10,711 nt of DNA, from NCBI RefSeq assembly GCF_003334315.1, contig NZ_QOWR01000088.1. One strand, written 5' to 3'. Positions 454-808 of this stretch are shown piece by piece; within the stretch, counting starts at the first letter, position 1; every line of letters begins with the position of its first letter. The notes under the pieces were generated by a model. It saw nothing but the letters and a program-made list of their open reading frames with translations, was not told the DNA's origin and ran no database searches. The translations under genes and the position numbers were made by a program. The DNA comes from Escherichia coli. GTDB taxonomy: Bacteria > Pseudomonadota > Gammaproteobacteria > Enterobacterales > Enterobacteriaceae.

Positions 454-642
454 GCAATGCCAATAAAAACAATATTTAAAACATTCAATAAAATATCACA
501 CACAGATAATTAAACCTTAAATAACAAATGGTTGCGTTAATTTCAGTTGATTTACGATACACATTTCTCATGAATAATGCGTCATTTCAAATGATCAGCA
601 ATATTTACATTAAATAAGACTAAACTTATTGAACATTCGCAA

Positions 643-690
643 CAGCCCAAATGTAGGTTTTGGGCTGCAATAGTTCTTTTCTTTTTTATT
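643..690 (+). terminator. Candidate intrinsic terminator-like hairpin: 9-bp stem (643-651 cagcccaaa / 659-667 tttgggctg), 7-nt loop, then T-rich tract 674-690
   Basis: Perfect inverted repeat seen directly, followed by ttcttttcttttttatt on the + strand after a 6-nt spacer. The spacer and weak stem make this non-canonical. On the + strand it would stop transcripts leaving the IS1 end. Confidence 0.3.
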
Positions 691-768
691 ATCTGTTGTC
701 TGGTAATCATCAATAGATACTAAGGGCTTAACCGTATAGATATAACGTATCAAGAGGTAGGAGAAACA

Positions 769-797
769 GCGCCATATGCAGACATGGCGCGGTTTTA
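769..797. terminator. Candidate terminator hairpin just downstream of betT stop (stem 769-775 gcgccat / 784-790 atggcgc); possibly bidirectional
   Basis: GC-rich 7-bp inverted repeat. On the + strand it is followed by GGTTTTATG. On the - strand (the betT transcript) it is followed by UGUUUCUCC, 18 nt after the betT stop codon. U-tracts are short on both strands. Confidence 0.3.
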
Positions 798-808
798 TGC
801 AATAACAA

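Follow-up and report, generated by a model that had tools for sequence, protein, structure and literature searches.

An AT-rich interval between IS1 and betT in Escherichia coli: native betT-pdeL spacer ending at an IS1 insertion in yahV

The window analysed here, 10,711 nucleotides of Escherichia coli DNA (contig NZ_QOWR01000088.1), begins inside an IS1 element, and between the end of that element and the 3' end of betT lies an interval of 355 bp (454-808) with a GC content of 31.8%, as against 55.2% in betT and in the IS1 part. We are highly confident that this interval is the part of the native betT-pdeL spacer (874 bp) lying next to betT, and that it ends at an IS1 insertion in yahV. Over its whole length (355 of 355 bp) it matches at 100% the 355 bp that directly follow betT in the IS-free strains K-12 MG1655 and BL21(DE3), and because this match runs from end to end the interval must be native DNA. 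The spacer is 874 bp long in K-12, the same as in BL21. More broadly, the interval finds a match in 5145 of 5426 complete E. coli genomes, at least 80% of it being covered in 3693 of the 5426 and about 2200 records matching at 99% identity or more; B2-type alleles are approximately 90% identical by megablast. The original prediction had described an AT-rich stretch between an IS1 end and the 3' end of betT, which composition and a betT stop codon at 809-811 bear out. It had also allowed that end-to-end alignment with the DNA downstream of betT in IS-free strains would make the stretch plain native DNA with IS1 at its edge, and this is how the alignment came out.

Set beside the betT-yahV-pdeL region of K-12 MG1655 (b0314/b4730/b0315), the window has the same sequence and the same order of elements: the betT terminator, a second hairpin (hairpin 2), the distal pdeL operator CIB and the start of yahV. 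K-12 then continues with the 3' part of yahV, the Cra box, CDB, P1 and pdeL, whereas the window's region stops at nucleotide 50 of yahV and gives way to IS1. What this DNA is, where in it yahV, CIB and the hairpins lie and, from sister genomes, how IS1 inserted are matters of direct observation; all elements of the interval are already known and nothing in it is new in kind. An AT-rich "orphan" stretch beside an IS is here fully accounted for by known K-12 features, which makes this a routine finding.

At the left border of the interval lie the following two features:

Positions 1-453, plus strand: 3' part of IS1 (IS1A-like), ending ...AAGTTGGAGTCATTACC, with the InsB ORF at 61-438.
Positions 454-462, no strand: IS1 target GCAATGCCA, the right-hand copy of a 9-bp target-site duplication (TSD) whose copies are seen at both ends in AHM9C68I.

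The list of open reading frames places the InsB C-terminus on the plus strand at 61-438, the right inverted repeat of IS1 occupies 442-453 (...GGAGTCATTACC) with 453 as its last base, and genomes 100% identical to the window carry the annotation 'IS1-like element IS1A family transposase' at this place. The target GCAATGCCA is single-copy in the native sequence of BL21 and K-12. In AHM9C68I, a sister genome that carries the whole window at 100% identity, it flanks IS1 on both sides as a canonical 9-bp duplication, with pdeL intact beyond; the window itself shows the right-hand copy only. IS1 transposed into yahV at this site, probably with the standard 9-bp duplication.

Since the window begins inside IS1 and the left end of the element lies outside it, a simple insertion and an IS1-adjacent deletion look the same in the window's own genome. 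Under simple insertion, IS1 would end on its left in the left inverted repeat (IRL), followed by TGGCATTGC, the 3' part of yahV and pdeL; a left flank in which IRL gives way to TGGCATTGCTATAAT, the Cra box and pdeL would likewise signify simple insertion, and any other flank an adjacent deletion. Imagine that such a deletion had removed the rest of yahV, pdeL and its neighbours: the interval would then be a leftover, a regulatory remnant without its target. Something of the kind has happened in 2017.13.01CC, which is 100% identical to the whole window and shares its right junction. Its left IS1 end adjoins a truncated yahD, an IS1-adjacent deletion reaching part of yahD having taken the 3' part of yahV, pdeL, yahB and yahC and left no TSD pair. 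In 1297KP, IS1 sits at window position ~560 and the deletion takes yahV through yahN, so that IS1 adjoins yahO. For the window we nonetheless consider a deletion unlikely, given that five of the six strains with the same junction retain pdeL (AHM9C68I; AHM9C61I, via its 100% identity to the window; 23CRST042; JX21CE33; 30EVA2) and that a 9-bp duplication is found wherever flanks were read. The entire 10,711-bp window is matched at 100% in one piece by four chromosomes, and nearly so by JX21CE33; 23CRST042, JX21CE33 and 30EVA2 have the gene order pdeL - IS1 - betT, i.e. a simple insertion with pdeL intact. The sister genomes thus include likenesses of IS1-mediated adjacent deletions, with the same right junction and another left flank (yahD or yahO), whereas most of them have the simple insertion. 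The original prediction had looked in vain for pdeL, named there as the gene following betT in K-12. The gene is indeed absent from the interval; however, it is not missing from its proper place, as a native spacer of 874 bp puts it beyond IS1, outside the window, and beyond IS1 is where those five strains have it.

The gene that IS1 interrupted is represented in the window by two features:

Positions 454-503, minus strand: 5' fragment of yahV (b4730), with a GTG start at 503, codons 1-16 plus 2 nt, from RefSeq annotation in BL21 and K-12.
Positions 432-503, minus strand: chimeric 23-codon ORF yahV'-IS1, from translation of the minus strand of 400-503.

RefSeq annotates 'protein YahV' on the minus strand of the BL21 locus at 3976-4050, which corresponds to window positions 503 down to 429; in K-12, yahV lies at 331802-331876 and betT ends at 331496, placing yahV 305 nt past the betT stop. 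Read from 503 to 454, the window is identical to nucleotides 1-50 of yahV and occupies the same position. The ribosome-binding region ahead of this start also falls within the interval. Native YahV (VCDILLNVLNIVFIGIAIILVIIC) has 24 codons. The window lacks the intact 24-codon ORF ending ...IILVIIC*, the frame being cut after codon 16 2/3 to leave a disrupted allele, and as this frame runs from 503 into IS1, the element lies inside yahV. By translation, IS1 replaces the last seven residues of the 24-aa membrane peptide by six IS1-encoded residues, and YahV is probably inactivated. The same peptide is listed between betT and pdeL by VanOrsdel et al. 2018 (PMC6001520), who confirmed its synthesis by chromosomal epitope tagging and immunoblot, and it is discussed elsewhere as a 24-aa single-helix membrane peptide (PMC9976479). 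The interval is therefore not wholly non-coding, as had been supposed on the grounds that it held no credible ORF: its segment from 503 to 454 is the first 50 nt of an annotated gene validated by epitope tagging. The accompanying remark that the longest minus-strand frame comprised some 42 low-complexity codons was right about the frames it concerned, which have 43 and 47 codons and are of low complexity, but overlooked yahV. Tiny genes of this sort escape both reasoning from ORF length and annotation of their broken copies; PGAP leaves the cut yahV unannotated.

How much the loss of YahV matters is a separate question. The exact native peptide is present in the protein collection under the name 'Protein YahV', and an NCBIfam scan of the native, chimeric and B2-type peptides matched no model. 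A 24-codon yahV frame is open in five alleles from different backgrounds, the B2-type copy being unannotated or labelled 'hypothetical'. K-12-type and B2-type alleles differ at eight nucleotides, and all of these differences are non-synonymous (C2S, N7I, G15V, A17V, I19M, V21A, I23Y). SCPM-O-B-8794 has lost 1 nt, which disrupts the frame at approximately codon 5 and leaves a hydrophobic ORF of 17-19 codons that ends at the same TGA. With eight of eight differences non-synonymous, nothing points to purifying selection acting on the peptide and its loss may be neutral; to judge from these alleles, losing YahV may cost the cell little.

Between yahV and hairpin 2 lies an element with a better defined role:

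Positions 610-633, no strand: CIB (Cra-independent PdeL box), the distal operator of the pdeL promoter, a palindrome TTAAATAAG-N6-CTTATTGAA, from mapped EMSA primers.

The EMSA primers for CIB (4991/4997; Reinders et al., Table S4) map to 643->620 and 577-599, and the corresponding legend describes the fragment as CIB with 10 bp added on its upstream side and 33 bp on its downstream side (bioRxiv 10.1101/2021.10.01.462762). Primer positions and legend offsets together put CIB at 610-633, coordinates that derive from the primers and the figure legend rather than from a printed sequence; neither a printed CIB sequence nor the pdeL transcription start was found in the text of the preprint. An inverted repeat found independently, with arms at 610-618 and 625-633, coincides with this position. 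According to the same study (bioRxiv 10.1101/2021.10.01.462762), the left half-site of CIB overlaps an H-NS site, pdeL is silenced by H-NS, which is also a competitor of PdeL for CIB, Cra and PdeL jointly activate pdeL transcription, and CIB is needed for the cooperative (nH 2.2 vs 1.2), hysteretic and bistable behaviour of pdeL, for which a PdeL tetramer bridging CIB and CDB has been proposed. The promoter-fusion primer used by Reinders et al. starts at the first base past the betT stop (808->786), which implies that the authors treat the whole spacer as pdeL promoter region. All three options floated in the original prediction thus apply: the interval is a regulatory region, in that it holds CIB; it is an H-NS-type tract, going by the literature; and it was the IS1 target, its left edge being the 9-bp target sequence.

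The remaining pdeL control elements lie on the far side of IS1. From the mutagenesis oligos of Reinders et al. the Cra box is GCTGAATGGATTCAGT and CDB is TCTTAATGAGTGGG; no other Cra consensus occurs in the spacer, and the Cra box overlaps the stop codon of yahV. The P1 oligo and the 'RNAP interaction' primer both fall on TTGATC-16-TATAAT (locus L001, 3842->3815), the best promoter-like site there. The CIB, Cra-box/CDB and promoter-fusion oligos all map exactly, either to the window or to L001. IS1 would put 768 + 9 bp between CIB on the betT side and the Cra box, CDB, P1 and pdeL on the other, so that the centres of CIB and the Cra box, ~196 bp apart in native sequence, come to lie ~973 bp (196 + 777) apart in the IS1 allele. 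By analogy with published CIB-minus mutants, the IS1 allele would probably weaken the cooperative, hysteretic pdeL switch unless looping can span ~970 bp. In other systems, DNA can form loops of about 1 kb.

The two arms of CIB are invariant in five alleles and kept in a lineage that is ~65% identical overall. That lineage, the divergent Escherichia SCPM-O-B-8794, has ykgG/F/E where the bet genes would be, yet retains P1-like sequence, the Cra box and the CIB arms amid intergenic identity of roughly 65% by eye; with Cra box and CIB arms kept beside pdeL where bet genes are absent, the AT-rich tract evidently belongs to pdeL and not to betT. A scan of species-representative genomes with the CIB 24-mer gave no hits, and one with the Cra-box 17-mer gave 88, all by chance save one in a divergent Escherichia. 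Across five alleles the divergence of the spacer is a mosaic (alignment columns 75-445 versus 446-882): the part from the betT terminator through yahV and CDB diverges between phylogroups, and hardly any variation is seen in the P1 promoter and the ~330-nt pdeL leader. CDB varies among alleles (TCTTAATGAGTGGG vs TCTTAAAAAGCAGG), whereas the Cra box and the CIB arms do not.

Two further observations concern possible control sequences. A perfect extended -10 element, TGCTATAAT (TGTTATAAT in B2-type alleles), lies inside yahV on the minus strand (L001 3991-3999), directed at the Cra box and pdeL. The IS1 target duplication ends with the TGC of this element, which means that the pdeL-side copy retains the extended -10; a promoter-like site matching at 10 of 12 positions (TTGGCA-16-TATCAT) overlaps it. 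[quoted passage not shown] The DNA around it is unrelated by megablast, and it may be either a Cra site that has been kept or the joint left by an old recombination.

The original prediction had proposed two hairpins, at 643-667 and 769-790, and folding in silico finds both to be present and stable, 3.7-4.0 SD better than dinucleotide shuffles (0-1 of 200 shuffles being as good). It had assigned to the first the role of stopping plus-strand transcripts leaving IS1 before they reach betT, an assignment that we consider unlikely:

Positions 643-667, no strand: hairpin 2, CAGCCCAAA-N7-TTTGGGCTG, a putative element with a T-run on the plus strand at 672-690.

Hairpin 2 has a perfect 9-bp stem (643-651/659-667) with a 7-nt loop and folds at -17.4 kcal/mol on the plus strand and -14.9 on the minus strand. 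That it is a plus-strand terminator, halting transcripts from IS1 or native antisense transcripts before betT, draws some support from the stable plus-strand stem (z = -3.8), from a T-rich run found on that strand only, and from the pattern of substitutions in B2-type alleles: of three changes in the stem, two preserve pairing on the plus strand alone (G.U there, A.C on the minus strand), and the third disrupts the terminal pair whichever strand is read. However, this strand test rests on two transitions (chance ~0.25), and the plus-strand tail CAATAGTTCTTTTCTTTTTT (CAATAGTTCTTTT...) begins its T-run 5-8 nt after the stem, where a terminator would have it within 0-2 nt, which is why the scan did not call the hairpin terminator-like. 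Hairpin 2 is identical in IS-free strains, so it predates IS1 and is no adaptation to it; in the divergent lineage L038 it is absent. A search of 300-1000 against Rfam 15 returned only a spurious mir-84 (E = 0.33, 17.5 bits against a gathering score of 60). We therefore regard termination on the plus strand as rather doubtful, whether of IS1 read-out or of native transcripts, the more so as no conserved plus-strand source is apparent. A promoter-like site at 551-578 (9 of 12 positions) loses the final T of its -10 and has a changed -35 in B2-type alleles, and a 29-codon ORF at 528-617, just before hairpin 2, has ACG in place of its ATG in other alleles and no SD; we rejected both. A lesser variant is that hairpin and T-run could terminate an unannotated antisense RNA over CIB. 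In the work on pdeL, the published delta(PpdeL-pdeL) deletion has hairpin 2 as its left limit, primer 16112 mapping to 695->643 (bioRxiv 10.1101/2021.10.01.462762).

The second hairpin is readily placed with the gene next to it:

Positions 759-795, minus strand: betT intrinsic terminator, hairpin 790->769 followed by TGTTTCTCCT, from terminator scan and fold; bidirectional in form.
Positions 809-2842, minus strand: betT (choline transporter), intact, a 677-aa ORF, from the ORF and annotation in identical genomes.

The stem of this hairpin has 7-9 bp, can be extended as 764-775/784-795, and folds at -16.5 kcal/mol (z = -3.9). A consensus scan found two terminator-like sites against 0.3 expected, and both are this hairpin, one on each strand. 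Lying 18 nt past the betT stop with a 9-bp stem and the U-rich tail TGTTTCTCCT, it has the form of a Rho-independent terminator, and from sequence we assign it to betT. O157:H7 genomes show homology to the interval only at 769-808, after which the ehaA region begins; homology thus stops at the last stem base in the betT sense, the end nearest IS1. This boundary indicates that the betT transcription unit ends at the hairpin and that the DNA to its left is a different, variable module. Beyond betT, positions 2953-10711 have the ordinary K-12-type order betI-betB-betA-ykgH-ykgG-ykgF-ykgE, and 30EVA2 has a second IS1 within the equivalent of this region.

As a side result, a search of 5426 complete genomes with chimeric queries made of 150 nt of IS1 end and 150 nt of betT 3' end, covering the equivalents of window 159-808 (L001 3706-4355), shows the betT-pdeL spacer to be a recurrent target of IS1. 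An IS1 no more than 650 bp away from the betT stop is carried by 172 of the 5426 genomes, 146 in the window's orientation and 26 in the opposite one. We discounted the 172 genomes as evidence for a hot spot, since approximately 60-87 of them represent one ST131 clone and ~20 one ETEC O6:H16 clone (distance 249 bp). Distinct distances number at least 23 in the window's orientation and ~17 in the opposite one, making ~40 combinations of site and orientation over the whole spacer. Distances of 88/89, 101, 191/192, 196, 249 and 628 bp are hit in both orientations, and two sites fall inside the CIB palindrome. With sites spread over the entire spacer, selection for a particular IS1 position finds no support. 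A control AT-rich region beside betA (38% GC) has IS1 in 28 + 3 genomes, likewise at many distinct sites, which suggests that IS1 favours AT-rich DNA here generally. The AT-rich, H-NS-bound character of the spacer is probably why IS1 landed there.

By genome count, IS1 orientation is biased both in the betA control (28:3; window 6729-7378, the betA-ykgH spacer plus the 5' part of ykgH) and in the betT-pdeL spacer (146:26). The favoured orientation is the one reading in the window's plus direction; replication direction or clonal inflation are possible causes.

Does the interval then matter only as a landing pad, a functionless AT-rich spacer preferred by IS1 but otherwise neutral? IS1 elements are indeed scattered over the whole spacer, facing either way, and some lie upstream of CIB, where they would not be expected to affect pdeL; the AT-rich control beside betA gathers many independent insertions in the same way; and the segment is ~10% divergent between phylogroups, compared to 98-99% conservation of the pdeL-proximal half. 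A segment without function is nevertheless very improbable, being contradicted, for CIB, by EMSA and reporter experiments already in print: these define the box as an operator, and when it is mutated both cooperativity and hysteresis are lost. In addition, the CIB arms stay invariant amid the divergence, yahV is translated in K-12, and the terminator hairpin is kept with betT even in O157:H7.

The opposite possibility is that the insertions are anything but neutral. Activation by IS elements has been demonstrated experimentally for bgl and flhDC. The betT-pdeL spacer resembles the bgl operon and the flhDC upstream region (e.g. in MG1655 CGSC 7740) in that IS1 or IS5 enters an AT-rich, H-NS-bound spacer upstream of a silenced gene, recurrently, in either orientation and at many sites. 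The distribution of sites in the betT-pdeL spacer looks unselective. The flhDC case is also covered in PMC8669472. That the spacer insertions are recurrent adaptive mutations re-setting the bistable PdeL c-di-GMP switch strikes us as distinctly improbable. If it were so, the window's IS1 would disconnect CIB from the Cra box and CDB, the IS1 of ST131 would disconnect the Cra box and CDB from P1, and selection might act via motility/biofilm trade-offs or phage (N4-type) pressure. The natural IS1-split spacers are ready alleles with which to test the roles of CIB-CDB distance and H-NS continuity in the bistable pdeL c-di-GMP switch.

Within the literature searched, no paper was found to link ST131 or IS1 to the pdeL promoter. 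The ST131 insertion is shared by 60-87 genomes, several of them named O25b:H4-ST131, and has an 8-bp TSD, CACGTCAT (L006 651-1418, AR_0104). It lies 438 bp from betT and ~47 bp to the pdeL side of the Cra box, splitting the Cra box and CDB from P1, a position that predicts altered control of pdeL in that lineage.
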